The position numbers were made by a program, and so were the translations under genes. From Nitrospirota bacterium (GTDB taxonomy: Bacteria > Nitrospirota > Thermodesulfovibrionia > Thermodesulfovibrionales > Dissulfurispiraceae), in assembly GCA_963710375.1 (NCBI GenBank), contig CAVPZX010000005.1:96001-160000 (forward strand): DNA of 64,000 nucleotides. Direction: 5' to 3'. The notes beneath the pieces were generated by a model. The model was given only the letters and a program-made list of their open reading frames with translations, did not search any database and was not told where the DNA came from. Of the stretch, positions 7,056-23,661 are shown piece after piece. Every line of letters begins with the position of its first letter. The stretch's first letter is position 1.

Positions 7056-8834
7056 TTAGGCGTTTTCCCCTTGCAGCGGCAGGATTACTCTGAAACAGGA
7101 TCCCGTCGGCTCAAGGGGTAAGTACTCAACCCTTCCCCCGTGGGCCTCTGTGACCTCTTTAACTATAGTTAAGCCCAGCCCCAGATAGCCCTGAGCATGT
7201 GCAGCTGCGCCGATTGCTTCGCCTGTCCCTTTAAAATAGGGGTCAAACATACGCCTGCGAATTTCTTCCGGTATCCTGGGGCCCTGGTTCGTGACCATGA
7301 TTTCAGTGTTGCCCGCGCTATATGCAAGCAATATTTTAATTGTCGAGCCTACGGGGGAAACCCGGAGGGAATTGGTAAGCAGGTTTGAGATCACCCATGG
7401 GAATTTGGCCGGATCAATTTGGGCCCAGATATCTCCCTCACCTTCTTTCTCATAATGTAAAGTGACCTCTCGCTCCGCCGCAAGCAGTTGTATCGGTTTG
7501 AGCCATTCAGGGAGAAGTTCGCTCAGATTGGTCAACTCCGGGTGAATATGAATTGCCGCACCAGGAAGATGATCAACCTGTATGAACTGATTGGCAACGG
7601 AACGGAGCCTGACTATATCACTGAGCAGGGTCTCAATAAGGAATCGTGTGCGTTCATCATAGGACTCCTTCCTCTGTTCGAGAAGCTCTATGGCTGTGCC
7701 CAGAGATTGCAGAGGAGTCTTAAGTTCATGGGACAGAACGCCTATGAATTCTGTCTTAAGACGCTCTCTTTGACGGACCTCGGTAACATCATGGAGAAGA
7801 AAGATGGTCGAGATAAGTTCCCCGGTCGGAGAGAAGACATCTCTTATCCGGGCCTCAAAGCTCCTATGACCATCTCTTTCGGTCTGAAGTTCGAATACCA
7901 GAGCACCCTCTTTTACCTCTCTAAATACTTCACGAAGCTTAAAATAATTACCTGAAACAGAAGGGAGATCAGACCAGAGCATCCCAACTATACTATCCGT
8001 GCCAAGACCAATAAGCTGCGCTATTTTCAGGTTTACATGAGTGACCCGACCCTTGGTGTCAAGTGCTATTACTGCGTCCTCAACCGAAGACAGGAGGGTT
8101 TCCAACTGGTTTCTCTGACTGAGAATTCTGTCCAGATTAAGCTGGTCCGCTCGGCTTACCCTCTCCCATAGCAACGAGAATTCCTCATTGAGGATCCGGA
8201 TTTCAAGGCTGGAAGGTTCGGGCAGCTTGAGTGTCTCTCCGGGTTTTATCCTTGACCTCAGCACTTCAGCGATATTTTTGAGCGGTTTCGCAAGGCGGAC
8301 GGACAGGGAATCGACCATCAAGAGGGTAATAATAAATGTCACAAAATACAATAGCGCGGTCCCGATAACAATTGCACGGCGCACATGTCCCTCTTTTACG
8401 ACAAGCGCGAACATCCCCTTTTCATTCAGTGTAGTCAGATGTTCGAGCTGACTGTTCATTTCGATAACCCTGTCATCGGACTGACCCCCCTGTTTCCATT
8501 GTTTCCAGAGTTGTTCGATGCTGCCGGCAATCACGTCTTCACCGGGTTCGGTAATATTGGACTGCTCAAAACGCAATGCCTCATCAAACTGTCTTATCCA
8601 TACTTCATCAGGTAAATCCTGGTATGCCCCGCTGAAATGAAGCGCATTCCATGCCTGCTGCATTTTCCTTGCAGCCACAATAGAGTCATAGTTTGAATGA
8701 ATCATTTTAGGGGTGGTACCCGCCATAATAAAAACAGAGGAGAGGATGAAAAAAAGACCCATGACGCCAAACATGGCGACTATGGCAAGATAACCATGGA
8801 GAATCCTTTTTCGCAACGGAGGGAGCACTGTCAC
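7056..8834 (-). CDS. Membrane sensor histidine kinase (periplasmic helical sensor, HAMP-like, PAS, HisKA, HATPase)
   Basis: SHELKTPL H-box, NLLTNS N-box, GLGLTIVK G2 box; two TM segments. Confidence 0.92.
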   Translation of the reverse strand: MTVLPPLRKRILHGYLAIVAMFGVMGLFFILSSVFIMAGTTPKMIHSNYDSIVAARKMQQAWNALHFSGAYQDLPDEVWIRQFDEALRFEQSNITEPGEDVIAGSIEQLWKQWKQGGQSDDRVIEMNSQLEHLTTLNEKGMFALVVKEGHVRRAIVIGTALLYFVTFIITLLMVDSLSVRLAKPLKNIAEVLRSRIKPGETLKLPEPSSLEIRILNEEFSLLWERVSRADQLNLDRILSQRNQLETLLSSVEDAVIALDTKGRVTHVNLKIAQLIGLGTDSIVGMLWSDLPSVSGNYFKLREVFREVKEGALVFELQTERDGHRSFEARIRDVFSPTGELISTIFLLHDVTEVRQRERLKTEFIGVLSHELKTPLQSLGTAIELLEQRKESYDERTRFLIETLLSDIVRLRSVANQFIQVDHLPGAAIHIHPELTNLSELLPEWLKPIQLLAAEREVTLHYEKEGEGDIWAQIDPAKFPWVISNLLTNSLRVSPVGSTIKILLAYSAGNTEIMVTNQGPRIPEEIRRRMFDPYFKGTGEAIGAAAHAQGYLGLGLTIVKEVTEAHGGRVEYLPLEPTGSCFRVILPLQGENA

Positions 8835-8945
8835 TATTCGTCCTCTCGGCAGGGCGCAGCGGCTACAATGTGAACATGGATTTTGCTTACTCCGGCAACG
8901 TTATTTATACCTTCCGATTTCACTCAATATATTAACATATTAATA

Positions 8946-8975
8946 TTGACAATCTTATCCATCATTAATTAGACT
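8946..8975 (+). promoter_or_regulatory. sigma70-type promoter for the riboswitch-kimA transcript
   Basis: TTGACA-18nt-TAGACT directly before the aptamer. Confidence 0.6.
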
Positions 8976-8985
8976 ATCCGTCAAA

Positions 8986-9123
8986 TAGCAGCCGAAATCC
9001 ACTCTCAACTGTTGGGTTGACAGTGGGTGCGGGGGAACCACCGTATGGGGCGTATTTCTTGTCAGGAATAGGGCACTTCCAAGCCCGAGCCCGTCAGCTA
9101 ACCTCGTAGGCACATGGAAGGGC
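8986..9123 (+). ncRNA. c-di-AMP riboswitch (ydaO/yuaA class)
   Basis: Signature segments GCCGAA..GGGGAACCA..TGGGGCG..TAGGG..CCCGAGCCCGTCAGCTAACCTCGTAGGC; precedes a ydaO/kimA homologue and is followed by a terminator. Confidence 0.93.
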
Positions 9124-9139
9124 AATAGGCAGATTACAA

Positions 9140-9174
9140 GACCGCTCCCGCCCAGGCGGGCGGCGGTTTTTTTG
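9140..9174 (+). terminator. Intrinsic terminator (riboswitch expression platform)
   Basis: accgc-t-cccgcc/ggcggg-cg-gcggt GC hairpin followed by T7. Confidence 0.85.
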
Positions 9175-9205
9175 TGTTCTCCTGTGAGCGCCCTGGGAGG
9201 AATCT

Positions 9206-11020
9206 GTGTCAGTCAAGAGCTTTCTTATCGGCAATCCAATCGAAACAGTCAGGGAAAAACACGAGCGGCTTAACAAACTCATGGGTCTCGCCGTGTTCTC
9301 TTCAGATGCTCTGTCATCCGTTGCCTATGGTACGGAGGAAATTCTGTTCGCACTTATTCTCGGCGGCACCGCGATGCTCCATTACTCGCTGCCCGTTACC
9401 TTCAGCATAGTTGTGCTTGTCACAATTGTCGCTACCTCTTACTTCCAGACAATCCATGCATATCCTTCAGGCGGAGGAGCCTATATTGTTGCAAAAGATA
9501 ACCTCGGCACATATCCCGGAATCATTGCGGGAGCAGCATTGCTTATCGACTATGTTTTGACCGTAACCGTCAGTATCTCTGCCGGTATCGAGGCGATCAC
9601 CTCTGCGTTCCCGTCGCTGCACAGCCAGGCAGTCCTAATGTGTCTGCTTGCCATAGTGCTTATCATGGTAATTAATCTGAGGGGTGTGCGTGAGTCCGGG
9701 AAAGTCTTTTCGATACCTGTATACATTTTTCTCGGCAGTCTTTTCCTTCTTATAGCCATGAGTTATGTAAAATCATTTACTATTCTCCGTCCTGTGCCGG
9801 TGGAATATAAAGCTGCCGCTTCAAACGCAGTCCCTATTTTTATCATACTCAGGGCCTTCGCTTCCGGCTGTGCCACCCTCACCGGAATCGAAGCGGTATC
9901 CAACGGAGTAAAGGCTTTCAGGGCTCCCGAAGCAAAGAACGCCGGAATAACTCTTATGTGGATGGCTGGGTTGCTCGGAGTCCTTACTCTCGGCATTGCC
10001 TATTTCGCTGACTATTACAGAATTATGCCCAATGAGAACGAAACCGTGCTGTCGCAACTTGCAAGAACGGTATTCTCGAAAGGGTTCATCTATTACACTA
10101 TTCAATTCGCTACGGCATTTATTCTCGTTCTCGCGGCCAATACTTCGTTTGCCGATTTCCCGAGACTCTCATCAATCATGGCTACCGACCGTTTTCTGCC
10201 AAGGCAGCTCAGCAATCGTGGGGACAGGCTTGTTTTCTCCAATGGCATCTTGCTGCTTGGGTTCTTTTCGGCCTTGCTGCTTGTAATCTTCGGCGGCGAC
10301 ACGCATGCATTGATACCTCTATACGCAGTAGGCGTTTTCACAGCCTTTACACTATCGCAGGCAGGCATGGTAAAGCACTGGATCAAATTCAAGGGAGAGG
10401 GGTGGAAAAAAAGCATAGTGATAAATGGAGTGGGGGCAATTGCCACCGGGATTGTACTTCTTATCATAGCAACTGAAAAATTCACGCACGGGGCATGGAT
10501 AGTGCTTGTAGCGATACCCAGCCTGGTCATCCTGATGATGAAAATCCATAATCACTATGCTTCTGTTGCCGAGCAGCTCTCCGTAACTTCCTGCGAGGTC
10601 AATCAGCCCGAATTCAAGCACCACTCGGTCATAATTCCCATATCAGGCGTGCAGCAGGCTGTCATCAGTGCGGTAAAATACGCAAAAATTCTCTCCGATG
10701 ACGTGGTTGCACTGTATGTGTGTCTCGACCCGGCAGCTACGAAATTGACAAGGGAGAAGTGGGACCAACAATGCATGGGTGTACGTCTTATTGTTCTTGA
10801 CTCTCCCTTCCGTTCGATAAAAGAGCCGATTCTTGATTATATAGATGAGGTTCAGCAGCGCTACAAGGATGGTGTCATCACGGTGATACTTCCCGAGTTT
10901 GTGCCCTCAAAGTGGTGGCATAATCTGCTGCATAACCAGACAGCTTTCTTTATAAAAGGCACTTTACTGTTCAAAAAGGGAGTGGTTTCCACAAGCGTGC
11001 CCTTTCACCTGGTCAAGTGA
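9206..11020 (+). CDS. kimA: KimA/YdaO-like K+ transporter (APC superfamily)
   Basis: FSSDALSSVAYG, YPSGGGAY, TGIEAVSNG, ANTSFADFPRL; C-terminal cytoplasmic domain; GTG start after GGAGG. Confidence 0.9.
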   Translation: MSVKSFLIGNPIETVREKHERLNKLMGLAVFSSDALSSVAYGTEEILFALILGGTAMLHYSLPVTFSIVVLVTIVATSYFQTIHAYPSGGGAYIVAKDNLGTYPGIIAGAALLIDYVLTVTVSISAGIEAITSAFPSLHSQAVLMCLLAIVLIMVINLRGVRESGKVFSIPVYIFLGSLFLLIAMSYVKSFTILRPVPVEYKAAASNAVPIFIILRAFASGCATLTGIEAVSNGVKAFRAPEAKNAGITLMWMAGLLGVLTLGIAYFADYYRIMPNENETVLSQLARTVFSKGFIYYTIQFATAFILVLAANTSFADFPRLSSIMATDRFLPRQLSNRGDRLVFSNGILLLGFFSALLLVIFGGDTHALIPLYAVGVFTAFTLSQAGMVKHWIKFKGEGWKKSIVINGVGAIATGIVLLIIATEKFTHGAWIVLVAIPSLVILMMKIHNHYASVAEQLSVTSCEVNQPEFKHHSVIIPISGVQQAVISAVKYAKILSDDVVALYVCLDPAATKLTREKWDQQCMGVRLIVLDSPFRSIKEPILDYIDEVQQRYKDGVITVILPEFVPSKWWHNLLHNQTAFFIKGTLLFKKGVVSTSVPFHLVK

Positions 11021-11059
11021 TAGAAAATACTAAGGTCTCGCTGGCAGCTTCAGCTTCGC

Positions 11060-12664
11060 CTACCTGCGGGTCTTCGTCAGGTTGAAGTCCGGGTATGCGG
11101 TAACATTAACTTCGTTCAGGTCGAGGCCATCGAATTCTACTTCAGCTGATACCCGCATCGGAATTATTTTATCCAGCAGCTTGAAGAACGCGAACATCAC
11201 AACGAAGACAAAGGCGAAGTTTACGCAAACTCCTATAACCTCTGCCACGAACTGTGAAGTGCCGCCATAAAACAGACCTTTTACCGTGCCGGGGACGTTG
11301 TTCATTCCGTCACCATATGTGCCGTCAGCGAAAAGTCCCAGTGCGATAAGCCCCCAGGCCCCGCACGTGCCGTGAACAGATACCGCGCCCACAGGATCGT
11401 CAACTTTTAATGTCCTCTCCACAAAAAAGATGCTCATACAGCAGAGTACACCTGCAACAAGCCCTATAATGACTGCTCCGACCGGATTCACGAACGCGCA
11501 AGAAGCTGAGATAGCCACGAGTCCGGCAAGGAGCCCGTTTGCGGACAAGGACAGATCCGGCTTGCCGTAACATATCCACATGTATGCCATTGCCGAAAAA
11601 GCTGCTGCCACGGATGCCAGCAGGGTATTTACCGCTATGATCCCGATTCTCAAGTCATCACCGGCGAGGGTCCGGCCTGTAGTGAACCCGAACCAGCCAA
11701 AGAAAAGTATTAAGCACCCTATAATAGCCATTGGGATATGGTGTCCTGGTATTGCGCTGGGAGTTCCATCAGCCCTGAATTTTCCGATGCGCGGACCAAG
11801 AACTATGGCTCCCGAAAGGGCAGAAACGCCGCCGACCATATGGACAACTGAGGAACCTGCGAAGTCCAGTACCCCGTGGCCGAGGCCGAAATTTTTGCCG
11901 AGCTGTGACAGCCACCCGTGGCCCCATACCCAATTTGCATAAATAGGGTATGTAAACATTGCCATAAAGAACCCAAAGATCATGAATGATTTAAATGTCC
12001 AGCGTTCAGCCATGGCGCCTGTTGGAATTGTAGCAGCGACGTTCATAAAGACCACCTGGAAAAGAAAGAGCGTGACAATCGCGGCATCATAGCCAAAACC
12101 TGAGAGGAAGAATCCCCGTGTGCCGAAAATGCTGAACTCCTTTCCGAAGAGGTGCAGTATGAATTCACCGTTCAATAATCCTGTTCCGCCGGCAAGAGGA
12201 CCAGCGCCGACACCGCCCATCTGGAACGCATAGCCGCAAATCCAATAACCGAGCACCCCGAAGACAAGCACCATGAAGTTCATCGCAATGGTATGGGCGG
12301 CATTTTTTGCCCTCGTAAAACCGGTCTCTACCATTGCAAAGCCTGCCTGCATGAAAAATACGAGATAAGCGCAGATCAATGTCCAAACAAAATTAATGGC
12401 GATCCTGTTATGGCCGACGACATCTGCCAGCTTTATGGCAAGCGGCTCGTTTTTTGCCAAATTTTTAATGTCGTCCGCGGTTGGGGCTTCGGATGTGGCG
12501 CCAATTACGTCCTTGCTCCCTCCTGTATTAACGCCTGATGGATCGGGTTTAAGCTCATGGGCCGGCGCAGTCTGAGCCTGTTCATCCGCAAGCGCCGGCA
12601 ATGCCGGCAAAACAAACCCCATCAGCAATGCAATTAACAAGAAAAAGGCCAATATATTTTTCAT
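11060..12664 (-). CDS. amt: Ammonium transporter (Amt family) with altered substrate-site motif
   Basis: FFMQAGFAMVETG, GAMAERW, DFAGSSVVH, DDPVGAVSVHG; N-terminal signal peptide. Confidence 0.93.
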   Translation of the reverse strand: MKNILAFFLLIALLMGFVLPALPALADEQAQTAPAHELKPDPSGVNTGGSKDVIGATSEAPTADDIKNLAKNEPLAIKLADVVGHNRIAINFVWTLICAYLVFFMQAGFAMVETGFTRAKNAAHTIAMNFMVLVFGVLGYWICGYAFQMGGVGAGPLAGGTGLLNGEFILHLFGKEFSIFGTRGFFLSGFGYDAAIVTLFLFQVVFMNVAATIPTGAMAERWTFKSFMIFGFFMAMFTYPIYANWVWGHGWLSQLGKNFGLGHGVLDFAGSSVVHMVGGVSALSGAIVLGPRIGKFRADGTPSAIPGHHIPMAIIGCLILFFGWFGFTTGRTLAGDDLRIGIIAVNTLLASVAAAFSAMAYMWICYGKPDLSLSANGLLAGLVAISASCAFVNPVGAVIIGLVAGVLCCMSIFFVERTLKVDDPVGAVSVHGTCGAWGLIALGLFADGTYGDGMNNVPGTVKGLFYGGTSQFVAEVIGVCVNFAFVFVVMFAFFKLLDKIIPMRVSAEVEFDGLDLNEVNVTAYPDFNLTKTRR

Positions 12665-12684
12665 GTACGCCCCCCTCGTAAAAA

Positions 12685-12770
12685 AATGTTAAATTATGAA
12701 TTATGAATGTTGAATTATAGAATAATTTTTGATCCCTAATTCAAAATTTAAAATTAAGCATTCAACATTC
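12685..12770. repeat. Fold-back element of AAT(T/G)(A/T)TG heptamers
   Basis: aatgtta-aattatg-aattatg-aatgttg-aattata ... taattcaaaatttaaaattaagcattcaacattc. Confidence 0.7.
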
Positions 12771-12771
12771 T

Positions 12772-13095
12772 TTATAGCCTGCTCCCAAACTGAATTATCA
12801 ATCCGCCGCAAATAATCACCAACAACCCAATCCAGGTAGAATTCGGTATATTTTCTCTGAACACGAACTGTCCAAAAAGTATACTTATAATCGCGAAGAT
12901 TGCGACGTAGACTCCGAGTAATTTTGAAAAATCCCATTTCACTATGTTGACGACCACACCATAACAACCCAGTATTGCGCATCCTGTCAAAATAATAATC
13001 AAGCTGCTTCCTCGAAGTCCTTTACGAACAACCGCGTCTCCGCCAACCTCGAGGACTGCCGCACCGACGAAAATAAGCCATGCAAGATAAGTCAT
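12772..13095 (-). CDS. SMR/DMT-like four-TM protein (YnfA/EmrE-like)
   Basis: 107 aa, 4 TM helices, Glu in TM1 (AAVLEVGG), GVY motif in TM3; GGGAGG RBS. Confidence 0.8.
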   Translation of the reverse strand: MTYLAWLIFVGAAVLEVGGDAVVRKGLRGSSLIIILTGCAILGCYGVVVNIVKWDFSKLLGVYVAIFAIISILFGQFVFRENIPNSTWIGLLVIICGGLIIQFGSRL

Positions 13096-13120
13096 TTGTG
13101 AATCCTCCCTAGTGAAGATT

Positions 13121-13214
13121 AGCTAAAACTATGCCAGCTTGCAACTACCTGTTTTATAAATAAGTCTTAAGAAAAGTGTTACGACAAAATTGTATACTGC
13201 CACAACATTGTAGG
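13121..13214 (-). promoter_or_regulatory. sigma54 promoter plus twin ACA-N4-TGT upstream boxes
   Basis: Minus strand CTGGCATAGTTTTAGCT at 13121-13137; boxes at 13184-13193 and 13202-13211. Confidence 0.8.
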
Positions 13215-13230
13215 GATAAGAGAAGTGCAT

Positions 13231-15027
13231 TTAATGCGCGGTTCCGCGGTGGAGGATCAGAAACAATAGCAGAAGGAAGACAACGATAGGGACCGACACG
13301 GCAAGCGTAATCCAAAGTGCTTTTTTTGCACCGCGCTTCCATGCAGTCGGTGTCTGAAGCCGGTCACATCGCCCGGTCAATTGCACTGAAACGGGATTAT
13401 CCAAATCGGCTTTCATGGCTGCAGCCGAAGGATAACGGTTGCCGGGCTCGCGCTCCATGGCATGGAGGATGATCTCTTCAACCTGAGGAGATAATTTCGG
13501 GTTGCGTTTCCGAGGCGCCACAGGGTCGCCGGTGACGCGGGCGTTCATGACCGCGAAAGGGTTGTCGCCATCGAACGGCACTACGCCGACAGCCATTTCG
13601 TACAGCATTGCGCCAAGGCTGTAAATGTCGGTCCGCGCATCCCCGCGCTTCCCTTTGACCTGTTCGGGGGCCATGTAATCGGGCGTGCCGACCGCTGGCG
13701 TAAAACCGGCAAATGTGATTCGTCTCCCCTCCGCGGCCCTGGCGATGCCGAAGTCCACGATCCGGATAGTGCCGTCGTAGCAGATCATGATGTTCTGCGG
13801 TTTGAGGTCACGGTGTATTACGCCGTTTTCGTGCATATGCGCCAACGCCTCGCATACATAACTTGCTATCTTGATCGCGTCCTTTTCCGGCATCGGGCGG
13901 ACACTGTTCAGCAAGTGCGACAGCGTATAGCCGTGCAGATACTCTGTTACGATATACGGCCTGCTGCGGTGTTCCTCTTCCACGGGAATGAATTTCAGGA
14001 TGTAGGGATGATTCAGCCGGTTCCCGATCTCTTCCTCGCGCTGGAAGCGTGAGTAGAAACCGGGATCGCTCTCAAACTCCATCAACGGCACCTTGACCGC
14101 CACGGTTTCTTTGGTATTCAGGTCAGTTGCCTTGAATATGGTGGCCATGCCGCTGCGACTGATGGTCTCAAGAATTAGAAAACGCTTATCGAGGGTGTAC
14201 CCAGGCCGGAGTTCATAACGGCTCGTCAGGTCCTCACGCTCCTGATACATAGGAACGCCTCTATAATACGCCATTTTCTCTACGTCGTTGATTTGAAGGA
14301 CCTGCACGGAAAGATTATCATCGGTTCCCCGCTGCTCTGCCAGGGCAATAAGCTGTCGGCAGGCCTGGGCCGGAGAAAAGCGCGATACGATGTCGGCGAG
14401 CTCGCTGTCCGCGACATGCGCATACAAGCCGTCGGAACAAAGCACGACCCGGTCGCCAATGAACACTGTGGTGCCCTCCACGTCGAGCCTTACCACCGGC
14501 TCATTTCCTACGCTGCGGGTCAGGACAGAACGTTTTTCGCTGGTCTTGGCGTCATGTTCGGTAATCAACCCGAATTTTTGTTGCATGCCGACATATGTAT
14601 GATCTGTGGATAACTGTTTGATCTCTCCCTTGCGGACCAGATAGACCCGGGAATCTCCCACATTGCCCACTATGATTTCATCGTTCCGCAATATAACGAT
14701 TGACAGGGTTGTCGCCATGCGGGACTTGCCGTGGTCCTCCATGCCTTTGTCGTATACGGCAACATTTGCGGCATTGAACATCTGAGTCAGCAACTGCTGA
14801 GGAGACTGGTCCTCTGGTGACTCGCGGAAGGTTTTCAAGGCTGTCTCCACCGAAAGCCGGCTGGCCACTTCACCACGGTGCATCCCGCCAACGCCATCGG
14901 CCAGCGCTGCCACAGCGCCGCGGCTGCGCTTTTCCTCAAGGGTTTCCGGCTGCCAGAAGCCTACGAAATCCTCATTGTTTTCGCGAGCAGGTCCAGGCGA
15001 AGAAAGTTCAGCGTATGTCAGTTCCAT
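13231..15027 (-). CDS. Bifunctional PP2C phosphatase / Hanks-type Ser/Thr kinase with C-terminal TM anchor
   Basis: PP2C motifs NED, ADGVGG, VGDSRVY, CSDGL, DNLSV; kinase motifs VAVK, HRDLKPQN, DFG, YMAPE. Confidence 0.93.
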   Translation of the reverse strand: MELTYAELSSPGPARENNEDFVGFWQPETLEEKRSRGAVAALADGVGGMHRGEVASRLSVETALKTFRESPEDQSPQQLLTQMFNAANVAVYDKGMEDHGKSRMATTLSIVILRNDEIIVGNVGDSRVYLVRKGEIKQLSTDHTYVGMQQKFGLITEHDAKTSEKRSVLTRSVGNEPVVRLDVEGTTVFIGDRVVLCSDGLYAHVADSELADIVSRFSPAQACRQLIALAEQRGTDDNLSVQVLQINDVEKMAYYRGVPMYQEREDLTSRYELRPGYTLDKRFLILETISRSGMATIFKATDLNTKETVAVKVPLMEFESDPGFYSRFQREEEIGNRLNHPYILKFIPVEEEHRSRPYIVTEYLHGYTLSHLLNSVRPMPEKDAIKIASYVCEALAHMHENGVIHRDLKPQNIMICYDGTIRIVDFGIARAAEGRRITFAGFTPAVGTPDYMAPEQVKGKRGDARTDIYSLGAMLYEMAVGVVPFDGDNPFAVMNARVTGDPVAPRKRNPKLSPQVEEIILHAMEREPGNRYPSAAAMKADLDNPVSVQLTGRCDRLQTPTAWKRGAKKALWITLAVSVPIVVFLLLLFLILHRGTAH

Positions 15028-15076
15028 AGTTGAAACACCTTAACATTTTTTTTGCTAAATTGAAAGCTTCTATAAG

Positions 15077-15106
15077 AAAATGGGGGACTCGATTGAGTCC
15101 CCTTTT
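15077..15106 (-). terminator. Putative terminator after glnA
   Basis: ggggactc/gagtcccc hairpin with A/T tracts on both sides. Confidence 0.7.
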
Positions 15107-15127
15107 AATCACTGCTGAAACTCTATT

Positions 15128-16540
15128 CTAAATGTCGTAGTAAAGGAAGAACTCATAAGGATGGGGCCTCAATCTGAGGGCATCTACTTCTTTGGATCTC
15201 TTGTAGCTGATCCATGTTTCAAGGGCATCATCGGTGAATACGTTCCCTTTCATCAGGTACTCATGGTCTTCCTCAAGATGGTTGAGTGCCTCTTCCAGAC
15301 TTGCCGGCATGGTCGGCACTGAGGCAAGTTCCTCCGGGCCGAGTTCATAGATGTCCTTGTCAAGCGGCTCGCCAGGATGTATCTTGTTCTCGATCCCGTC
15401 AAGACCTGCCATCAGCATCGCGGCAAAGGCCAGATAAGGATTGCACGATGGATCAGGGAACCGCACTTCCGCCCTCTTTGTCTTAGGGCTGGCTGAGTAT
15501 GTGGGTATCCTTACACATGCCGAGCGGTTCCTGGCAGAATAGGCAAGGTTCACCGGAGCTTCAAACCCAGGTGTCAGTCTCTTGTATGAGTTAGTCGTCG
15601 GGTTGGTTAGGGCCGCCAGGGATTTCGCATGCTTCAGAACCCCGCCGATATAATAAATAGCGGTCTCGCTAAGCCCTGCGTAGCCGTTGCCGGCAAATAC
15701 AGGCTTGCCGTTTTTCCATATGCTCTGATGGGTGTGCATCCCGGAACCGTTGTCCCCGAATATCGGCTTCGGCATGAAGGTCACTGTCTTGCCGTGCCTC
15801 TTGGCTACATTCTTGATTATATATTTAAAGAGCATCAGGTAGTCTGCCATCTTGACCAGGGACTCAAACCTCATGTCGATTTCAGCCTGTCCTGCTGTGG
15901 CGACTTCGTGGTGTTCCTTTTCTACATAGATGCCGCATTTCAGCATCTCAACCACCATCTCTGTCCTTAAATCCTCCTGGCTGTCCATCGGAGGCACTGG
16001 GAAATATCCCTCTTTGTGCCTCGGCTTGTAGCCCAGGTTGGGTTTCTCGTCGCGGCCTGAGTTCCAGATGCCCTCAACCGAATCAAGGAAATAATAACCG
16101 CTGTGAGAATTCTGGTCGAACATTATATCGTCAAAGATAAAAAATTCAGCCTCAGGGCCGAAATAAGCCGTGTCACCTATCCCTGTCGACTTGAGATACG
16201 CTTCCGCTTTCTGCGCAATGTACCTTGGGTCCCTTGTGTATGATTCTTTTGTGATAGGGTCTACAATGTTGCAGATCAGGCTCAGCATGGGACGCTCTGT
16301 AAAAGGGTCCATAATTGCGGTGGAGGGATCGGGAACGACGAGCATGTCAGAGGTGTGGATTGCCTGCCATCCCCTGATTGAAGAGCCGTCAAATCCAAGC
16401 CCCTCACTGAATACTTCCTCTTTTAACTCGCTGACCGGCGCTGCAAAGTGCTGCCAGAGACCTGGAAAATCAAGGAACTTGAAGTCCACCATCACTGCCT
16501 TGTTCTCCTCGGCCATCTTGATTACGTCTTTCGGTGTCAT
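15128..16540 (-). CDS. glnA: Glutamine synthetase type I
   Basis: [39 protein letters not shown]; adenylylation-site Tyr in DIYELGP. Confidence 0.98.
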
Positions 16541-16557
16541 ACATCCTCCTTTATTTT

Positions 16558-16594
16558 AAATAGACGGTCACCCATGAGGGTGACTGTCTATTTT
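16558..16594. terminator. Strong hairpin between APC permease and glnA
   Basis: aaatagacggtcaccc/gggtgactgtctattt inverted repeat just 5' of the glnA RBS. Confidence 0.6.
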
Positions 16595-16621
16595 GGAATT
16601 GTCGAGAAAAGATGATATTGC

Positions 16622-18529
16622 TTACGAAACCGGAGATACCGGTTTGCTGCTGAGCAAAATTTCCTTGCCTTTAGTCTTGCTGGACTTGAGGAAGTAGAAG
16701 GCCCCGTAAATGCCCCAGATGGCGACGAATCCCAGCGCGATATATGGTTCCTTCCAACTCATGCCGCTGACCGTGAACGGCCCGATCAGGTAGAAGAGCA
16801 TAATAGATAAGTTTGCCAATAAGCCGAGAATAGGGATGACAACGTGCTTGATGCCGTTGAAGCTGTGGTGTTCCCTGAATGCCACCATCGCAATATAGCA
16901 GGTGAACATGTAGAGGAGGAACGTGCCGAAGTTGCTGACCAGCGTGACGATGAGCAGCGTGTTGGGCAGCTTCGTGTACATATCCGGCGAGAAGATGCCG
17001 AAGCTGTACCAGAAGTTGTGCTTGTCCAGTGCTGCGAGCGGTGTAGCTTGTCCCCCTAAATACACTGACACGGTGGCGATGCCGATGACCACTGAAATCA
17101 CTGCCAGAGTCCAGATCGCCTTGTGCGGCGACAGGTTCTTTCCGTGCAGAAGACCGAAATGCGACGGCACTTCTTCGTCCCGCCCCATGGCGTAGGTTAC
17201 GCGGGCGCCGGTGCTCAGGCATGAGAGAGTAGTGCCAATTAATGCCAGGAAGACTGTCAAGGCCTGTACCAGCATGAATGCCTTGCCTGCCGCGTAAGAG
17301 CCAAACAGCCATGTGCCTGTAATGACCATCAGGTCGCCTAGCGGGGCGCCGGAAGCGCCTGCATTCGGCATGGTGTATCCGTTATGAAGCATGTAATTGG
17401 CGGCAAAATACTCGATCAGGTAGCAGAAGGCGCCCTGAATGGCAAGTGACAGCAGCACTGCCCTTGGAATATCTTTTTTCGGCCTTTTGGCTTCCTCACC
17501 CATCGCGGTGACCGACTCGAAGCCGACCAGGATCAGAATTGCGATGGCTGCCTGAATGAAGATGAAATTAAACCCGTGAGGAGCCACGACAGATGCGGCG
17601 CTTTTATGATAGTTGAATGTGGGGTTCCCCTTGTCATCCTTAGTGATCGCTCCGTCGACATAATCGACCGTGAACGGCGCAGCGAGCTTTGGATCGGTTA
17701 CAGCCTTGCCGTCCTTGTCAGCAGGCACAGGCATCCCCGACTTCTCATCAGTAGCGTCAATCATTGTGTAGACCGGCTTGTTGTCTTTGTCCAGAGTGGG
17801 TTTGCCGTTAGGGTCCAACACAGGCACCGGATTCCCTTTATCATCCTTCTGGACCACCTGGGCGACCTGATAGTTCACCGCGATGCCGTTTGACAGATGG
17901 TAACCTGTTGAGCCTTGCGGATGCTGGACGCGATAGCCTATGGCGATCACCGAGAACACCAGCAATGCTGATATCTGGATAATGTTAATCACTACGTTGA
18001 CAGCCGTTGTACCGGTAACACCGCGATAAGCGATGTATGCAACGCCGAGCGCGAACACGATGCAGAAGATAAACATGAAGATCGGGCTGTTATAGGTGCC
18101 GCTGAAGGTGTCTGGCCAGAATTGATTTAAGAGATATCCGCCGAGAATGGCTGTAACACCGACCATGACCCCCGGATACACCCAGTAATAAAGGTGGCTT
18201 GCCCATCCGGTGATGAACTTGGCGAGCCGCGCGAACTTGTATGCGTGTGTCTTTGAAAGGAACGCCTGCTCCGCATACAGGTAGGACGAACCCGGGCCCG
18301 GATAGAGCTTAGACAGTTCAGCGTAGCTGATTGCTGTAGCGAAGCAGAGCAACAGGGCGAAGAGAATGCCGAACCACATGGATATGCCTGCCATCGGCGC
18401 TCCGTAAAGCGACTGCATTTGAAATGTTAACCACAGGAACGCGCCGGGCGCGATCAGCGCCATCGCGTTCATCGTCAGACCTGTTATGCCTAACGTTCCC
18501 CTAGTGACCGGTTGTTGTTCGTTTGCCAT
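16622..18529 (-). CDS. APC-family permease with ~110-aa hydrophilic insert
   Basis: YAELSKLYPGPGSSY, GFESVTAMGEE, ARVTYAMGRD; multiple TM segments. Confidence 0.9.
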   Translation of the reverse strand: MANEQQPVTRGTLGITGLTMNAMALIAPGAFLWLTFQMQSLYGAPMAGISMWFGILFALLLCFATAISYAELSKLYPGPGSSYLYAEQAFLSKTHAYKFARLAKFITGWASHLYYWVYPGVMVGVTAILGGYLLNQFWPDTFSGTYNSPIFMFIFCIVFALGVAYIAYRGVTGTTAVNVVINIIQISALLVFSVIAIGYRVQHPQGSTGYHLSNGIAVNYQVAQVVQKDDKGNPVPVLDPNGKPTLDKDNKPVYTMIDATDEKSGMPVPADKDGKAVTDPKLAAPFTVDYVDGAITKDDKGNPTFNYHKSAASVVAPHGFNFIFIQAAIAILILVGFESVTAMGEEAKRPKKDIPRAVLLSLAIQGAFCYLIEYFAANYMLHNGYTMPNAGASGAPLGDLMVITGTWLFGSYAAGKAFMLVQALTVFLALIGTTLSCLSTGARVTYAMGRDEEVPSHFGLLHGKNLSPHKAIWTLAVISVVIGIATVSVYLGGQATPLAALDKHNFWYSFGIFSPDMYTKLPNTLLIVTLVSNFGTFLLYMFTCYIAMVAFREHHSFNGIKHVVIPILGLLANLSIMLFYLIGPFTVSGMSWKEPYIALGFVAIWGIYGAFYFLKSSKTKGKEILLSSKPVSPVS

Positions 18530-18562
18530 AGTGTTTCTCCTTTATTTACTGACATAAATTAT

Positions 18563-19471
18563 TTAAAAACTAAATGTCAGGTTAACCCCGTATACAAAGA
18601 TATCCTTAAGTTGACCGTTGGGGTTGAAAGCATGACCGTTTGTAATTTTGCTCGCATCGCTCGAAAGCGGAAACCAGTACTGGACAACAGGCTGAGCTGA
18701 TAACATCTTTGTAACAGGTATGGTATAGCCGACTTTCACCATGCCATCGTGGAATGCACTGTATTTAGGGCCGTTGTAGAGCCCGGTGGAGCTGCTATAT
18801 GTGTCCCAGAAATTTGAACTCCCATACTCATATCCGAATGATGCGCCCAGGTTGACGGTGGTCTCTTTGTACACCGGGATGGACTGGGAGAATGAGAGAT
18901 TGAAGTATGTGCCGGGGTAGTGATTGACGTCACGGTAGATCGCAAGTGTAGGGTGTGCGATCATATCGTAAGTGCCGCTTACATAAACCTCTTCTGTTTC
19001 AGGCGCATATTGTGTACCGTAATAGATAAATCCGCCGGTGAGGGCCAGCTTGTCGATGTTGTAGGTATAGTTAAGAGTCAGGTCAGTCTCGTCGTAGTTA
19101 TTGTGCCCTCTGGAAGTTGTAACAGGAGCAAAGTTTTGAGTTGCGTGCTCGCTGGTGTCGATGTTGCTCCATAAATTTGCTGAGAAGCCTGCGTAGTTAA
19201 TCGTAAGTGTCGGTTGAAAGACAGCGCTATGCGAACTGAGTTCGTATCCTCTGAATATGTAGTGATTAAGAACAGACAGCGCTGCGCTGCCGGTGACTGC
19301 AGGAGCCGCAGGAGCCGCCGCAGGTGCTGCCTCAGCTGCCGGTGCAGCAGGAGCTGCAGGAGCTGCAGGAGCTGCCGCTGCTGGTTGATCTTCAGCATAA
19401 AGATTGGAAGATACTGTAAAAACTAATGCAAAGACAATAATAGCACCGATAAATTTTCTCATCCTTTTCAC
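18563..19471 (-). CDS. TorF/TIGR02001-like outer-membrane beta-barrel with Ala/Pro linker
   Basis: Signal peptide, YIFRG, ETDLTLNY, aromatic-rich beta strands, C-terminal Phe (LTFSF). Confidence 0.75.
   Translation of the reverse strand: MKRMRKFIGAIIVFALVFTVSSNLYAEDQPAAAAPAAPAAPAAPAAEAAPAAAPAAPAVTGSAALSVLNHYIFRGYELSSHSAVFQPTLTINYAGFSANLWSNIDTSEHATQNFAPVTTSRGHNNYDETDLTLNYTYNIDKLALTGGFIYYGTQYAPETEEVYVSGTYDMIAHPTLAIYRDVNHYPGTYFNLSFSQSIPVYKETTVNLGASFGYEYGSSNFWDTYSSSTGLYNGPKYSAFHDGMVKVGYTIPVTKMLSAQPVVQYWFPLSSDASKITNGHAFNPNGQLKDIFVYGVNLTFSF
19297..19383 (-). repeat. 9-bp coding tandem repeat (Ala-Ala-Pro linker)
   Basis: (gcaggagct/gcc)n encoding AAAAPAAPAAPAAPAAEAAPAAAPAAPA. Confidence 0.8.
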
Positions 19472-19500
19472 TATGTCCTCCCTATGGATGTTTTACAGGC

Positions 19501-19722
19501 TTAAGCCTGTTTTTCCGTTGTCTGCATTACAACAAGGTCTCTGCTCTTTTCCTGTTTTTCCTCACTCCTCCTTATTCCATATTTTTTAATCTTGTACCCG
19601 ATCATCCTCTCGGTTATGCCGAGTTGCCGGGCTGCCTTAGCCATCACCCAACTGCATTCACTGAGGGCGTCGATTATTGCCTCTCTTTCCATCTCCTTCA
19701 CTTTGTCTCTCAATGTATTCAT
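19501..19722 (-). CDS. Stand-alone Fis/NifA-type HTH protein
   Basis: EMEREAIIDAL..WVMAKAARQLGITERMIGYKIKKYGI resembles the NifA-family C-terminal HTH; own GAGGTG RBS. Confidence 0.85.
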   Translation of the reverse strand: MNTLRDKVKEMEREAIIDALSECSWVMAKAARQLGITERMIGYKIKKYGIRRSEEKQEKSRDLVVMQTTEKQA

Positions 19723-19747
19723 TGCGCAATCACCTCTCTCAGGTACA

Positions 19748-19841
19748 AGCTAAAACTGTGCCAGCCTGCAACCTCTTGATTTCTATGCGAACCTTAATGA
19801 GGGGGTTACGACAAATTTGTATAATGGGACAACTTTGTAGG
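19748..19841 (-). promoter_or_regulatory. sigma54 promoter, IHF site and twin ACA-N4-TGT boxes
   Basis: CTGGCACAGTTTTAGCT (19748-19764); AATCAAGAGGTTG fits IHF WATCAAN4TTR (19769-19781); boxes at 19811-19820 and 19829-19838. Confidence 0.85.
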
Positions 19842-19900
19842 TCGTGGGGGTACATCTGAAGGTTATGGCAGCGGGTCAAAGAAAAAAGAACAAAGCTTAA

Positions 19901-20629
19901 CTATGGCAGTGTCATTTGCCTTTTTGTATTGATCAGGGTTTCGACTTCCTTGTTTGCAGGATGGTTGAATATTTCAGAGGGGGTACCGGTTTGCGCGACC
20001 CTGCCGTTTGCATAGACAATGATGGTATCGGCCATTGTGTAAGCCTCAAAAATATCATGGGTGACAAGAACAACCGGTATATCGTACGCATTTCTCACGT
20101 CGTTCAAAAACTCGCCCATCTCAATGCGGAGGGGATTGTCGAGTGCGGAAAACGGTTCATCAAGGAGAAGCACATCCGGCTTCCGGATAAGCGCCCTCGC
20201 AAAGGCAACCCGCTGCTGCTGACCTCCGGAAAGTTTTGAAGGCAGACTGTCTGCAACTCCCTCAAGGCGAAAGGTCCCGATTATCTCCTCAACGATTCTT
20301 TTGCACTCGCTAGCAGCGGTCCCTGTAGCACCGTATCGTATATTTTCCCTGACTGTCATGTGAGGGAAGAGGGCAAGGTCCTGGAATACATAGCCGAAGG
20401 AGCGCTTTTGCGGGGGGAGGTCGATCCCTTTAAGGCTGTCAAACAGCACATTCTCCCCGGAGCGCACAACCCCCTCGTCAGGCCGCATGAGTCCGGCAAT
20501 CATCTGAAGGGTTATGGATTTTCCTGCTCCGGAATACCCGAAGAGGACGACAAGCTCGTTATCTATTTCCCAGGAGACATCGAGGGAGAATACGCCCGCC
20601 TTTTTTTTAAGGGTGACTGAAAGTCCCAT
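19901..20629 (-). CDS. modC: Molybdate ABC transporter ATPase
   Basis: GYSGAGKS Walker A, LSGGQQQR, LLLDEPF; ATG overlaps the modB TGA. Confidence 0.9.
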   Translation of the reverse strand: MGLSVTLKKKAGVFSLDVSWEIDNELVVLFGYSGAGKSITLQMIAGLMRPDEGVVRSGENVLFDSLKGIDLPPQKRSFGYVFQDLALFPHMTVRENIRYGATGTAASECKRIVEEIIGTFRLEGVADSLPSKLSGGQQQRVAFARALIRKPDVLLLDEPFSALDNPLRIEMGEFLNDVRNAYDIPVVLVTHDIFEAYTMADTIIVYANGRVAQTGTPSEIFNHPANKEVETLINTKRQMTLP

Positions 20630-21294
20630 CAGATAATCCGCCTGCTGTATTTGTTCGCAAGATAGAGGAACCCCCCTGAGAGCATGGTCAGCAGCAGGAC
20701 CATGGCATGCGCCCTTGACCATTCGCCGCTGCCGGCAAGTGAGTAAATTGCAAGCGGCATGGTGTCGGTCTTGCCGGGAAGGTTCCCGGCCAGCATAAGC
20801 GTAGCGCCGAACTCGCCCATGGCGCGGGCGAAGGAGAGCACAACTCCTGCAATGATACCTTTTTTTGCGAGCGGGAGAATTATCCTGACAGCTGTCTGGA
20901 ACTCTGTGCGCCCCAATGTATAGGAAGCATTGATCAGATTGGCATCGACCGACTCGATTGCCGCGCGCGCCGTTTTTATCATAAGCGGGAGCGCGACAAC
21001 AAACGATGCGAGCACTGCTGCGTACCATGTGAACATAATGGTCCAGCCGGTCCAGTGATATATGATTTTGCCCACAATGCCGTTTCTTCCGAAAAGTACG
21101 ATGAGATAATAGCCGGTAACTGTAGGTGGCAGGACCAGAGGGAGTGTAAAGAGAATATCGAGAAGTTCCTTGCCCCTAAAGTTTTTTCGAGCAAGAAAGT
21201 AAGCAACGGTTATGCCGGTTACGAAAACAAAAGCTGTGGCAACTGTCGCCACCTGAAGAGAGAGACGCATTGAAAAAAATACTGAACTGTCCAT
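20629..21294 (-). CDS. modB: Molybdate ABC transporter permease
   Basis: LPLVLPPTVTGY, FARAMGEFGAT. Confidence 0.95.
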   Translation of the reverse strand: MDSSVFFSMRLSLQVATVATAFVFVTGITVAYFLARKNFRGKELLDILFTLPLVLPPTVTGYYLIVLFGRNGIVGKIIYHWTGWTIMFTWYAAVLASFVVALPLMIKTARAAIESVDANLINASYTLGRTEFQTAVRIILPLAKKGIIAGVVLSFARAMGEFGATLMLAGNLPGKTDTMPLAIYSLAGSGEWSRAHAMVLLLTMLSGGFLYLANKYSRRII

Positions 21295-21338
21295 ACGTCA
21301 ATATCCGGCACTATCCCGGCCATGACCATGCCGTCTCA

Positions 21339-22073
21339 TTATAATCCGCCGCATACATCGCAGTGTGGGTCTCTTCGGATAGTGAGCTTCCTGAAATCCA
21401 TATCTATTGTGTTAAATGACAGCATCTGAGATATTAATGGCTTGCCGTATCCTGTGAGGAGCTTTATCGCCTCTATGCTCATGATGCAGCCGAGCATGCC
21501 TGACACAGCGCCCAGCACCGGGAAGCCCAGTTCCTCCCACCCGGGGTCATCCGAAGGGTAAAGGCAGTTGAGGCAAGGCGTGGTGCCGGCTACAATATTA
21601 AAAATATATCCTTCCATTCCATTCATTGCCGCTTCGACCAGAGGGACACCTTTTTTTACACATGCCTTGTTCAATACTCTTCGTTCGTGAAAAGTGGGGC
21701 GGGCAGAAAGCGCTATTTGAACTCCGCTAAGCAGCTTCTCAACATTCGCCTCCGAGGTCCGCTCGTCATGGATTTCAACTTCCACTTCCGGGTTTATATC
21801 CTCAATGCTCTTCATTCCCTGAACAACCCTGCTTTTTCCTACCCAGTCATCTCTCATCAATATCTGCCTGTTCATGTTGGAAAGGGTCAGGTTGCCGGAG
21901 TGGGCAAAGATCATTTTCCCGATCCCTGCGACTGCGAGATATAGTGCGGCAGTTCCGCCAAGCCCTCCAATTCCGGAGACAAGAGCAGTGGAGTTTTTAA
22001 GCTTTTGCTGATGGTCCGGGGTAAATCCCCCAAGCATCAATTGCCTGCGGTAACGTTCAAAAGACGTTGTCAC
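21339..22073 (-). CDS. hesA: HesA (ThiF/MoeB E1-like) nif-associated protein
   Basis: RYRRQL, GIGGLGG, SNMNRQ, CLNC and CDVC; GTG start after GGAGAGG. Confidence 0.85.
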   Translation of the reverse strand: MTTSFERYRRQLMLGGFTPDHQQKLKNSTALVSGIGGLGGTAALYLAVAGIGKMIFAHSGNLTLSNMNRQILMRDDWVGKSRVVQGMKSIEDINPEVEVEIHDERTSEANVEKLLSGVQIALSARPTFHERRVLNKACVKKGVPLVEAAMNGMEGYIFNIVAGTTPCLNCLYPSDDPGWEELGFPVLGAVSGMLGCIMSIEAIKLLTGYGKPLISQMLSFNTIDMDFRKLTIRRDPHCDVCGGL

Positions 22074-22950
22074 AGTAATCCTCTCCGATTTTGGCATTAA
22101 GCATCTCAAGCTCCATATCTTTGTCCTCGCCGATAATTCCGCATGCGTCAGCCCTGCATTGTTTGCAGTGGGTCATCTGAGGTATGTGCTGCCTGCAGGT
22201 CTCGCGTATTTTGTAAATGGTCTCTCTTGAGGGCCTTTCCAGATGCCCGAAAGAAGCCTGAGGAATGAGCGGTAAAATATTCATGATGTCTGCGCCCAGT
22301 TCTCCCGCTAATTTTGCGATAAGAGGAATTTCCGTGTCATTTATTCCCGGAATAAAAACTGTATTAACCTTAACAATAAGTCCCGATTCTATGGCATTGC
22401 TGAGACCCTTCCACTGATTGCACAATAAGTATTCGGCAGCCTCCCCGTTATGATAACGCTTTCCGCCTTTATTTATCCACGCGTAAACCCTTTCAGCTGT
22501 TTCGGGAAATACTGCATTTATAGTTATGGTCAGGCTTCTTACCCCTGATTTTATAAGTTCTTCGAGACGCTCGGGAAGAAGGAGCCCGTTTGTTGAAACG
22601 CACAAAATAAGATCGGGGAATTCCCTGTGCAGTGCATGCATAACGTCAAAAGTGGCTCTGTTAGCGAGCGGGTCCCCGGGCCCCGCAATCCCTGCAACGC
22701 TCAGGTTTCCGCTTCGTTCCACGAGGGTGCGCACTCTTTCGACCGCTTCGTCTGCGGAGAGCACCTTGCTTGTTATTCCAGGCCTGGATTCATTGGCGCA
22801 ATCGTATTTCCTTATGCAATAGTTGCACTGGATATTGCACGCCGGGGCCACGGGAAGATGTATGCGTCCGAATTTATGATGTGCGCTCTCCGAAAAACAT
22901 GGATGCTGCTCCATTATGCTCCCTTTTTTATTCAGTGTAAGTGGTATCAC
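22057..22950 (-). CDS. nifB: FeMo-co biosynthesis radical SAM protein NifB (short form without NifX domain)
   Basis: HPCF, RIHLPVAPACNIQCNYC, NESRPG, AGPGDPL, CKQCRADACG. Confidence 0.95.
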   Translation of the reverse strand: MIPLTLNKKGSIMEQHPCFSESAHHKFGRIHLPVAPACNIQCNYCIRKYDCANESRPGITSKVLSADEAVERVRTLVERSGNLSVAGIAGPGDPLANRATFDVMHALHREFPDLILCVSTNGLLLPERLEELIKSGVRSLTITINAVFPETAERVYAWINKGGKRYHNGEAAEYLLCNQWKGLSNAIESGLIVKVNTVFIPGINDTEIPLIAKLAGELGADIMNILPLIPQASFGHLERPSRETIYKIRETCRQHIPQMTHCKQCRADACGIIGEDKDMELEMLNAKIGEDYCDNVF

Positions 22951-23008
22951 CTGTATCCCTCCTGAGTGTTCAATCTCTTTATCTGTGACACTGCGCTATC
23001 TTATATAC

Positions 23009-23094
23009 AGCAAGCAGTGTGCCACTGTATAACTTATTGATTATAAAAAGAACACTGTTTCTCAATTAGAACTTAAAATGTCGTAAATGCTACA
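23009..23094 (-). promoter_or_regulatory. nifB sigma54 promoter, IHF site and TGT-N10-ACA UAS
   Basis: TGGCACACTGCTTGCT (23009-23024); AATCAATAAGTTA (23030-23042); TGTcgtaaatgctACA (23079-23094). Confidence 0.88.
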
Positions 23095-23162
23095 AAATAG
23101 TAGTAACGATGATTTGAGGCATATGGTAACAGATTCCGGACATGCGGTATGACAGAAAAATC

Positions 23163-23193
23163 AGCCTCCAATCCCGGTGGCGGGATGGAGGCT
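23163..23193 (-). terminator. Putative terminator after fdxB
   Basis: agcctcca-a-tcccg/cggga-tggaggct hairpin followed by GATTTTT on the minus strand. Confidence 0.7.
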
Positions 23194-23240
23194 CGCCATA
23201 AGATCGTTCAAAAAGACTTAGTATCTAGAGGCGTGTGTAG

Positions 23241-23516
23241 CTACATCGCGATATGAATGTGGCATTTTTTCGTACAGGTCCGATTGCATGCCTCGCAGCC
23301 GATGCAATTCTCGGGATGGGCAACGGACATCACTTTGTTGCCCATGTCATCGCCGTATTCATCCTCGCCCTCAAAGGGTTTTTCGATAAGCTCCAGCACA
23401 TCCCTGCTGCAGACCTTGTAACAGCGCCCGCAGCCAATGCATTTTTCAACGTCAATCGATTCAATGAATTGCGGCGTCCATGTCTGTCCGCCCCTTGTGT
23501 ATCCGACAACTGCCAT
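23241..23516 (-). CDS. fdxB: Ferredoxin III, nif-specific
   Basis: TRGGQTWTP, CIGCGRCYKVC, CIGCEACNRTC. Confidence 0.93.
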   Translation of the reverse strand: MAVVGYTRGGQTWTPQFIESIDVEKCIGCGRCYKVCSRDVLELIEKPFEGEDEYGDDMGNKVMSVAHPENCIGCEACNRTCTKKCHIHIAM

Positions 23517-23535
23517 GATCCCCTCCTAAAGAATC

Positions 23536-23660: not shown

Positions 23661-23661
23661 T

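Follow-up and report, generated by a model that had tools for sequence, protein, structure and literature searches.

An APC-fold permease paired with a tethered phosphatase-kinase in the amtB position of a Nitrospirota bacterium: a candidate carrier of ammonium or a small amine

Introduction

The textbook route of ammonium into bacteria is AmtB gated by GlnK. A locus of a Nitrospirota bacterium (Dissulfurispiraceae) raises the question of what a permease of APC fold, and a phosphatase-kinase tethered to the membrane, could be importing and controlling from the position in which relatives keep amtB. The locus lies in a stretch of 64,000 nucleotides (the window; C5:96001-160000) of a 3.19 Mb genome that is 98.8% complete. 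Here, seven intact open reading frames (ORFs) on the minus strand, at 11060-19722, lie immediately past modC; upstream of them are nifH, nifD, nifK, nifEN, nifB, a hesA/moeB-like gene and modBC. In operon order they encode a Fis-type helix-turn-helix protein (HTH), a predicted porin, an APC permease, a type I glutamine synthetase (GS), a PP2C-kinase fusion, YnfA and an Amt-family transporter; the promoters and the hairpin described with them are on the same strand. A reading of the window from its sequence (the original prediction) had described seven co-oriented genes just downstream of a nif/mod island, with an altered Amt and no glnK beside it, and these observations hold: the gene after amt is a convergent KimA-like K+ transporter, and Amt has Thr328 and Arg331 at the positions of E. 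coli AmtB Asn216 and Ser219. As argued below, the permease quite possibly carries ammonium or a small amine under the control of the tethered kinase-phosphatase, as far as can be judged from sequence comparison.

Results and Discussion

The permease and the kinase-phosphatase form the conserved core

The two genes around which the locus is built encode the permease, 635 aa (16622-18529), and a fusion of a PP2C phosphatase with a Hanks kinase that ends in one C-terminal transmembrane (TM) helix (13231-15027). Their co-occurrence with the other genes was checked by scanning species genomes with the permease, keeping the best 80 of 117 matches (79 loci). The scan reaches close relatives only, in Nitrospirota, Geobacteraceae, Desulfobacteraceae, Polyangiaceae, Verrucomicrobiota and Acidobacteriota-titled records, and the closest permeases, 84-94% identical, are in Nitrospirota, Thermodesulfovibrionales or Dissulfurispiraceae records; three pairs of loci share a genome, related loci do not count as independent, and the tally by phylum places three Ca. 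Acidoferrum or Ca. Baltobacteraceae loci under Verrucomicrobiota. The kinase gene was directly behind the permease gene in 66 of the 74 loci with downstream sequence, and within 3.5 kb in 72 of them. Among the 56 loci with at least 5 kb downstream, amt was found in 51, glnK in 37, ynfA in 26, a K+ uptake gene in 18 and glnA in 15. When metagenomes were scanned with the kinase instead, again covering close relatives with the best 80 loci kept, the permease was directly before the kinase gene in 55 of 59 evaluable loci; the remaining ones had Kup or glnA in the place of the permease, or a P-type ATPase context. Moreover, 11 of the 68 genomes of the bacterial family, this one included, have the permease, and the same 11 have the kinase gene (10 at threshold, one cut by a contig end); nifH is present in all 11.

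The conserved core is the pair of APC permease and PP2C-kinase fusion, and the seven genes are not one conserved unit. The proposal of a sigma54 nitrogen-regulon cluster with conserved linkage stands, in the form of permease-kinase adjacency across phyla with porin, amt, glnK and glnA as recurring neighbours. The single seven-gene module that accompanied it has to be given up, as glnA, a recent duplicate, separates permease and kinase genes in none of ten family relatives.

The core also varies in its form. In four Polyangiaceae-type loci, a kinase-only gene is downstream of the permease and a separate PP2C gene upstream. A distant permease subfamily has no kinase gene beside it in four of four loci, and the same was seen in loci L061 and L068; this subfamily follows BBP2 in all four loci and HTH in two; ynfA is present at three of them, and amtB is nearby at one. 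The Verrucomicrobiota loci L073, L077 and L081 show permease, glnA, permease and kinase genes in tandem, and L083, L086, L094 and L101-L103 have an additional kinase-only gene upstream. A plasmid search gave no match to the permease.

The permease and its likely relatives

The AlphaFold2 model of the permease (75 sequences) has the APC core fold, with a predicted local distance difference test score (pLDDT) of 88.3, and its closest structural matches are GkApcT, ApcT, KimA, BasC and AdiC. GkApcT, of the CAT family (SLC7-like), is the best of them (Z 34.2, root-mean-square deviation 2.7 over 422 residues); according to PMC5803215, the amides of its Thr43 and Gly44 bind the substrate carboxylate. 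Thr43 aligns with Pro28 in TM1 of the permease and, among the residues whose roles are described there, Glu115 is replaced by Tyr and Phe231 by Leu. Instead of the G-[ST]-G motif of CAT/APA proteins, the permease has Ala27-Pro28-Gly29, invariant in 51 of 51 aligned sequences, and P28, G29, W33, Y115, W116 and Y118 are each conserved in at least 90%. An insert of about 110 aa between TM5 and TM6, probably periplasmic according to the model, is a further feature. It corresponds to about 17590-17920 of the window and contains repeated Asp-Lys-Asp-Gly-Lys-Pro-like units with predicted short strands, its length varying between phyla.

On the family profile, the highest scores went to a Rhodococcus permease adjacent to an amine oxidase (90 bits), a Burkholderia permease of a methylamine-type cluster (86; about 30% identical to this permease over 157 residues) and an Acidithiobacillus permease near sarcosine-oxidase-like genes (79), followed by E. 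coli PlaP/PuuP with 77 bits, against 37 for AdiC, 17 for AroP and 3 for the KimA-like neighbour. In a panel of 22 proteins, the clade of amine-branch permeases that includes this one had a FastTree support of 0.964, while its position as sister to PlaP/PuuP had only 0.579; five amine-branch loci from outside E. coli were reached through one Burkholderia query, so that the panel is not a neutral sample. The TM1 proline is common to the permease, PlaP, PuuP and the amine-linked permeases, and occurs in none of nine other E. coli APC proteins. On these sequence criteria, the permease is assigned to the amine branch of the APC superfamily. The putrescine:H+ symporters PlaP and PuuP, together with the amine-linked permeases, are its best-scoring relatives of known or inferable function; the permease is nevertheless distant from them, has the extra insert, and amine-degrading genes are missing from its surroundings and, as far as the families searched for are concerned, from the genome. 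With no KUP K_trans match and no acidic residue in TM1, it falls outside KimA/KUP.

The search for such genes was made at two levels. No amine-degrading or other catabolic gene recurs near the permease among the 1306 ORFs listed from 80 loci. In the genome, searches covering the families named here found no EutB, copper amine oxidase, MttB, MtmB or arginase/agmatinase and no full urea carboxylase; the five class III aminotransferases are argD, bioA, hemL and two hemL-like genes, all of biosynthetic type. An N-methylglutamate (gmaS-mgs) system was likewise absent, there being no third GS-family gene and a sole glutamate-synthase locus, away from the permease. Five further module-bearing genomes have one type I GS each, with only weak second matches.

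The pair stands where relatives have amtB

The HTH, 72 aa (19504-19722), resembles the DNA-binding domain of the NifA-like activator of this genome, and it is followed by a predicted outer-membrane beta-barrel, weakly Gcw_chp/TorF-like (18563-19471). The latter scores 19.6 bits (E 0.001) on Gcw_chp (PF09694), against a cut-off of 24, and its AlphaFold2 model (12 sequences, pLDDT 78) is an all-beta barrel matching OmpG/Tsx/NanC-type porins; in other lineages it is replaced by BBP2 or by a third porin-like family. Upstream of the permease, in 65 loci, we observed this porin in 9, BBP2 in 6, the third porin-like family in 5, glnK in 13, USP in 5, amt in 2, a kinase gene in 1 and no identified gene in 24.

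To see what normally follows the HTH-porin head, we surveyed 23 HTH loci out of the 33 family genomes that have the HTH and lack the permease. The order was HTH-porin-amtB in 21 of them, HTH-BBP2-amtB in one and HTH-porin-GATase-glnK-glnA in one. Since amtB is headed in this way in 22 of 23, the HTH and porin are best regarded as the ordinary leader of amtB operons in the family, and the permease-kinase pair occupies the amtB position. Compared with a glnK-amtB operon with an upstream porin, the locus thus has the same head of sigma54 promoter, HTH and porin, and it has amt, which glnK follows in most relatives; it differs in the APC permease and phosphatase-kinase behind the porin, in the loss of glnK and in the Arg at the Ser219 site of Amt. 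The canonical amtB of this genome, unlike that of relatives, has no HTH-porin head, and transposase and ATPase genes lie directly upstream of its promoter (C2:475546-478232).

Two sigma54 promoters and a stand-alone HTH

The operon has two promoter regions, P1 (19748-19841) and P2 (13121-13214), which form a direct repeat of 94 nt, the longest among the two-copy repeats listed for 10500-25500. Each contains a correctly spaced sigma54 -24/-12 element (19749-19763 in P1) and two upstream ACA-N4-TGT-type sites, 18 nt apart in P1, which are likely, from their sequence, to be an activator binding site. The two promoters had been called near-identical; their number was right, and their likeness amounts to 76% identity overall, with 14 of 15 bases in common in the -24/-12 core. 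A pattern scan of the genome found six places, namely P1, P2, amtB, nifH, nifB and one unrelated site; as the pattern was drawn from these very promoters and scanned with no shuffle or other chance control, it shows a common motif and not its significance. The pattern differs from the classical NifA site. In relatives, a sigma54 element and an upstream site precede 12 of 14 HTH homologue matches, and the P2-type arrangement is ahead of only 8 of 30 ynfA homologues.

The HTH matches Pfam HTH_8 (E 5e-13), has the NifA C-terminus as its best NCBIfam match, under the cut-off, and is 44% identical to the DNA-binding domain of the NifA-like activator of the genome (C2:295319-295480). It is present in 44 of 68 family genomes. 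That it is a broken activator was ruled out, the homologues being 59-79 aa long with short upstream open frames. Across the family it is the first gene of amtB operons and its recognition helix is nearly invariant. We regard it as a candidate feedback regulator in its own right. A second HTH-porin pair, with 83% nucleotide identity and no sigma54 promoter, lies at C3:66414-67600, directly behind kdpABC-like genes.

The glnA copy is recent and the loss of glnK is local

The glnA gene of the operon (15128-16540) arose by duplication of the housekeeping gene at C2:481757-483169, which lies in an amtB-glnK-GATase-glnK-glnA locus. The two proteins are identical and the genes differ at 13 of 1413 nt, all synonymous changes at third codon positions; a terminator-like hairpin between glnA and the kinase gene (15083-15102) was brought in with it. 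The product is above the TIGR00653 cut-off, with the GmaS and PuuA models below theirs, as expected of a type I GS, and the genome has only two of these and no other GS-family ligase. An assembly artefact is unlikely, considering that all 13 differences fall at third positions of an unchanged protein and that the metagenome contigs L106 and L129 also have glnA immediately ahead of the kinase gene. Contig L129, of a close relative, reads glnK-GATase-glnK-glnA-kinase and so unites the two loci of this genome that share glnA, by either recombination between glnA copies or chimeric assembly. Separately from this recent insertion, six loci from other phyla have glnA as the next gene after the permease, so this placement arose more than once.

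The absence of glnK is a local matter. Of the loci that have this amt, glnK comes next in 3 of 9 from the family, 16 of 26 from genomes and 27 of 35 from metagenomes. The suggestion that phosphorylation acts here instead of PII is therefore not supported, glnK following amt in most relatives and the genome keeping its amtB-glnK-GATase-glnK-glnA locus elsewhere.

A kinase-phosphatase found beside nitrogen transporters

The catalytic residues of both domains of the fusion (D20, D44, D125, D199 and D237; K312, H405-R406-D407 and D425-F426-G427) are invariant in 51 aligned sequences. Its C-terminus is one hydrophobic helix with a few residues past it, and with almost nothing beyond this helix the protein would have no sensor domain outside. 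Plasmid-borne relatives, 25-29% identical, have the same PP2C-kinase-TM layout. In the seven records opened, three are by nitrate/nitrite transport or reduction genes (one of these also by FNT), two directly behind FNT (one with cyanase) and one behind the Burkholderia APC permease, so that six of seven are near a nitrogen-compound transporter or cluster; the remaining one has MFS genes and narL for neighbours, which point to no clear substrate. The pattern that recurs is a transporter of a nitrogen compound accompanied by a tethered kinase-phosphatase. What distinguishes our locus from those of nitrate MFS, formate/nitrite (cyanate) and methylamine-cluster transporters is the partner, a different permease family accompanied by amt, glnK and glnA.

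As related fusions adjoin nitrate, cyanate and methylamine uptake genes, the kinase-phosphatase would, judging from gene order alone, act on the permease. A complex prediction for the permease with the kinase and its anchor scored 0.23, below the mark of 0.32. The fungal pair of Mep2 and Npr1 offers an analogy, a kinase controlling ammonium transport, which in our case is suggested by gene order alone; it differs in being eukaryotic, with an unrelated kinase, whereas the most constant neighbour of the kinase described here is the APC permease and not Amt. In the open-access literature, with most subscription journals outside coverage, we found no functional study of the genes annotated as 'bifunctional protein-serine/threonine kinase/phosphatase'.

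A selected Amt with a changed recruitment site

Behind P2 follow YnfA/UPF0060 (12772-13095), an accessory small membrane protein that is SMR-like and has Glu16, and the Amt variant (11060-12664). The ynfA gene was seen in Nitrospirota, Geobacteraceae and Desulfobacteraceae-type loci. Amt scores 379.6 bits on TIGR00836 (cut-off 343.3) and keeps the equivalents of the twin His, Trp148 and Asp160, which are invariant in 162 relatives, except for two gaps at the second His. At 197 near-invariant positions this Amt deviates five times, and Thr328 and Arg331 account for two of the five. At position 331, the 162 relatives have Ser in 140 cases, Pro in 8, Arg in 5, Gln in 5, His in 3 and Trp in 1; in a FastTree tree built without these columns, the position changed at least 11 times, concentrated in one Nitrospirota part, in which the equivalents of Phe103, Phe107 and Phe215 are also changed. 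A pseudogene was ruled out by the ratio of nonsynonymous to synonymous substitution rates (dN/dS) of 0.07-0.14 against 13 relatives, which indicates purifying selection, although four pairs with a canonical site were lower, at 0.03-0.045. In PMC3355798, S219A is reported as tolerated in EcAmtB and as raising its activity, and loss of transport is thus not established for an Amt with Arg331. Changes at the site were observed in 8 of 24 Amt proteins without glnK and in 4 of 38 with glnK, a trend only, as these rows include duplicates and kin.

Weighing the explanations

The original prediction favoured a non-ammonium substrate, and this part of it is weakened, since the surroundings of the permease show no recurring catabolic gene and relatives use the porin with amtB. 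For a carrier of amine type that stands in the place of amtB, repeatedly has glnA behind it and is not accompanied by amine catabolism, ammonium would be the simplest substrate. The locus could then be a nitrogen-starvation uptake operon, whose core, permease and phosphatase-kinase in the place of amtB, would supply GS with ammonium or a very small amine from outside, under a phosphorylation switch. The NifA-like activator would drive P1 and P2 under nitrogen limitation, with the stand-alone HTH modulating this activation, probably by competing at the same sites. The porin would admit the solute across the outer membrane, and the permease would bind the cation through TM1/TM6 carbonyls and the conserved aromatics W33, Y115, W116 and Y118, a carboxylate site being presumably absent because Pro28 removes the backbone amide. 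The ammonium would be trapped by the duplicated glnA, and the sensor-less kinase-phosphatase would read or modify the permease. The co-located Amt, no longer the main route, may be drifting at the site that recruits ammonium, and could have low affinity or not conduct at all.

Several observations weigh against an ammonium or small-amine carrier controlled in this way. To our knowledge, no APC-family protein is a dedicated bacterial ammonium carrier; the closest characterised relatives of the permease carry putrescine, its best structural match is an amino-acid carrier, and one amine-branch permease, lacking the TM1 proline, is in a sulfur-acquisition operon. The genome keeps two canonical amt genes, so that a further ammonium route looks redundant, and 33 of 44 nifH-positive family genomes do without the permease. 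The pairing has its own exceptions, namely two kinase loci beside a P-type ATPase with no permease, and the permease loci with no kinase gene, which make the kinase not obligatory. Finally, the absence of catabolic genes fits glutamine or glutamate equally, as these need no catabolic neighbour either, and 18 of 56 loci also hold K+ uptake genes.

Some of these points lead to other substrates. The permease might import an amino acid (glutamine, glutamate, alanine or glycine) that is used directly, with the kinase-phosphatase regulating the permease; the APC/CAT-like fold, the dispensable catabolic gene and a glnA that suits glutamate as well as ammonium would agree with this, but Pro28, invariant and otherwise seen in PlaP and PuuP and not in the nine other E. 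coli APC proteins of the panel, and a separate CAT-type permease with canonical TM1 in the genome (C2:732298-733740) make it improbable. An organic amine (methylamine, putrescine, ethanolamine or a guanidine compound) might instead be taken up as nitrogen source, as the original prediction read it, and any excess be exported by YnfA; we give this no greater chance. The nearest characterised relatives of the permease being putrescine symporters, an APC-kinase pair of the same layout ending a methylamine-type cluster in Burkholderia, and ynfA remaining in permease loci that lack the kinase gene all speak for it; the lack of a recurring degrading enzyme in the 80 loci, the tested pathways missing from the genome and the single type I GS of the five further genomes speak against it.

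Alternatively, the permease or the altered Amt could be mainly a sensor, with ligand binding relayed by the tethered kinase-phosphatase to GS, PII or the nif activator. A kinase with no outside domain must receive its input from a partner or the cytoplasm, and the Amt fold is kept under purifying selection while its binding site changes; nevertheless, a porin leads the operon, kinase-less permease loci exist and no effector gene is conserved in the neighbourhood, and we hold a sensor to be distinctly improbable. That the permease belongs to a cation-scavenging island and carries K+ (or K+/NH4+) is very unlikely. It would account for the KimA-like, Kup, APC-USP or Kdp genes in those 18 loci and for the second HTH-porin copy behind kdp-like genes, but the KimA-like neighbour barely scores on the family profile, TM1 of the permease lacks an acidic residue and the promoter motif is common to nifH, nifB and amtB.

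Other features of the window

Beyond the operon, 6276-11020 holds the KimA-like K+ transporter, a divergent PAS histidine kinase and a short ORF resembling a KimA C-terminal domain, a block that also follows amt in several relatives. Two PII-like genes (nifI-type) are within the nif island, at 23665-24395. Short intergenic inverted repeats of two families, REP- or MITE-like, lie at 12681-12773, 23530-23660 and 24885-24960, and both families have many copies genome-wide. At 48756-49755, galT is split into two overlapping ORFs, possibly by a frameshift or a sequencing error.

What the locus may mean

All parts of the locus belong to known families; the permease subfamily and its pairing with the kinase are without description in the open-access literature as delimited above. 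In the sections of PMC5023235 available to us, amino-acid permeases induced on methylamine are only mentioned; those of the Geomonas RF4 transcriptome paper and its one supplement (PMC10746287) mention neither permease nor kinase, the presence of the module in RF4 not having been checked, and the sequencing runs listed as holding the module include no RNA run. What this locus adds is the position in the amtB slot, the placement in the amine branch with no amine catabolism, a glnA duplicated recently and an Amt whose recruitment site has changed repeatedly. In its widest form, the proposal would be a dedicated ammonium importer of APC fold outside Amt/Mep/Rh, spread over at least five phyla of soil, peat and sediment bacteria and under the control of its own tethered kinase-phosphatase, with a neighbouring Amt that repeatedly loses its recruitment residues and may now serve as a regulator or as a channel of low affinity; this we consider doubtful.

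The hypothesis can be tested at once, as cultured carriers of the module exist (Geobacter argillaceus, Geomonas sp. Red32 and Geomesophilobacter sediminis) and transporter-free host strains are standard, and the natural variants of Ser219 (Arg, Gln, His, Trp and Pro) are a series for asking the role of that site in Amt proteins. If it is true, there would be a first function for the kinase-phosphatase fusions that annotations place next to uptake genes for nitrate, cyanate and methylamine, and soil and peat genomes would have to be read for ammonium scavenging with a second carrier fold, controlled by Ser/Thr phosphorylation, in mind.

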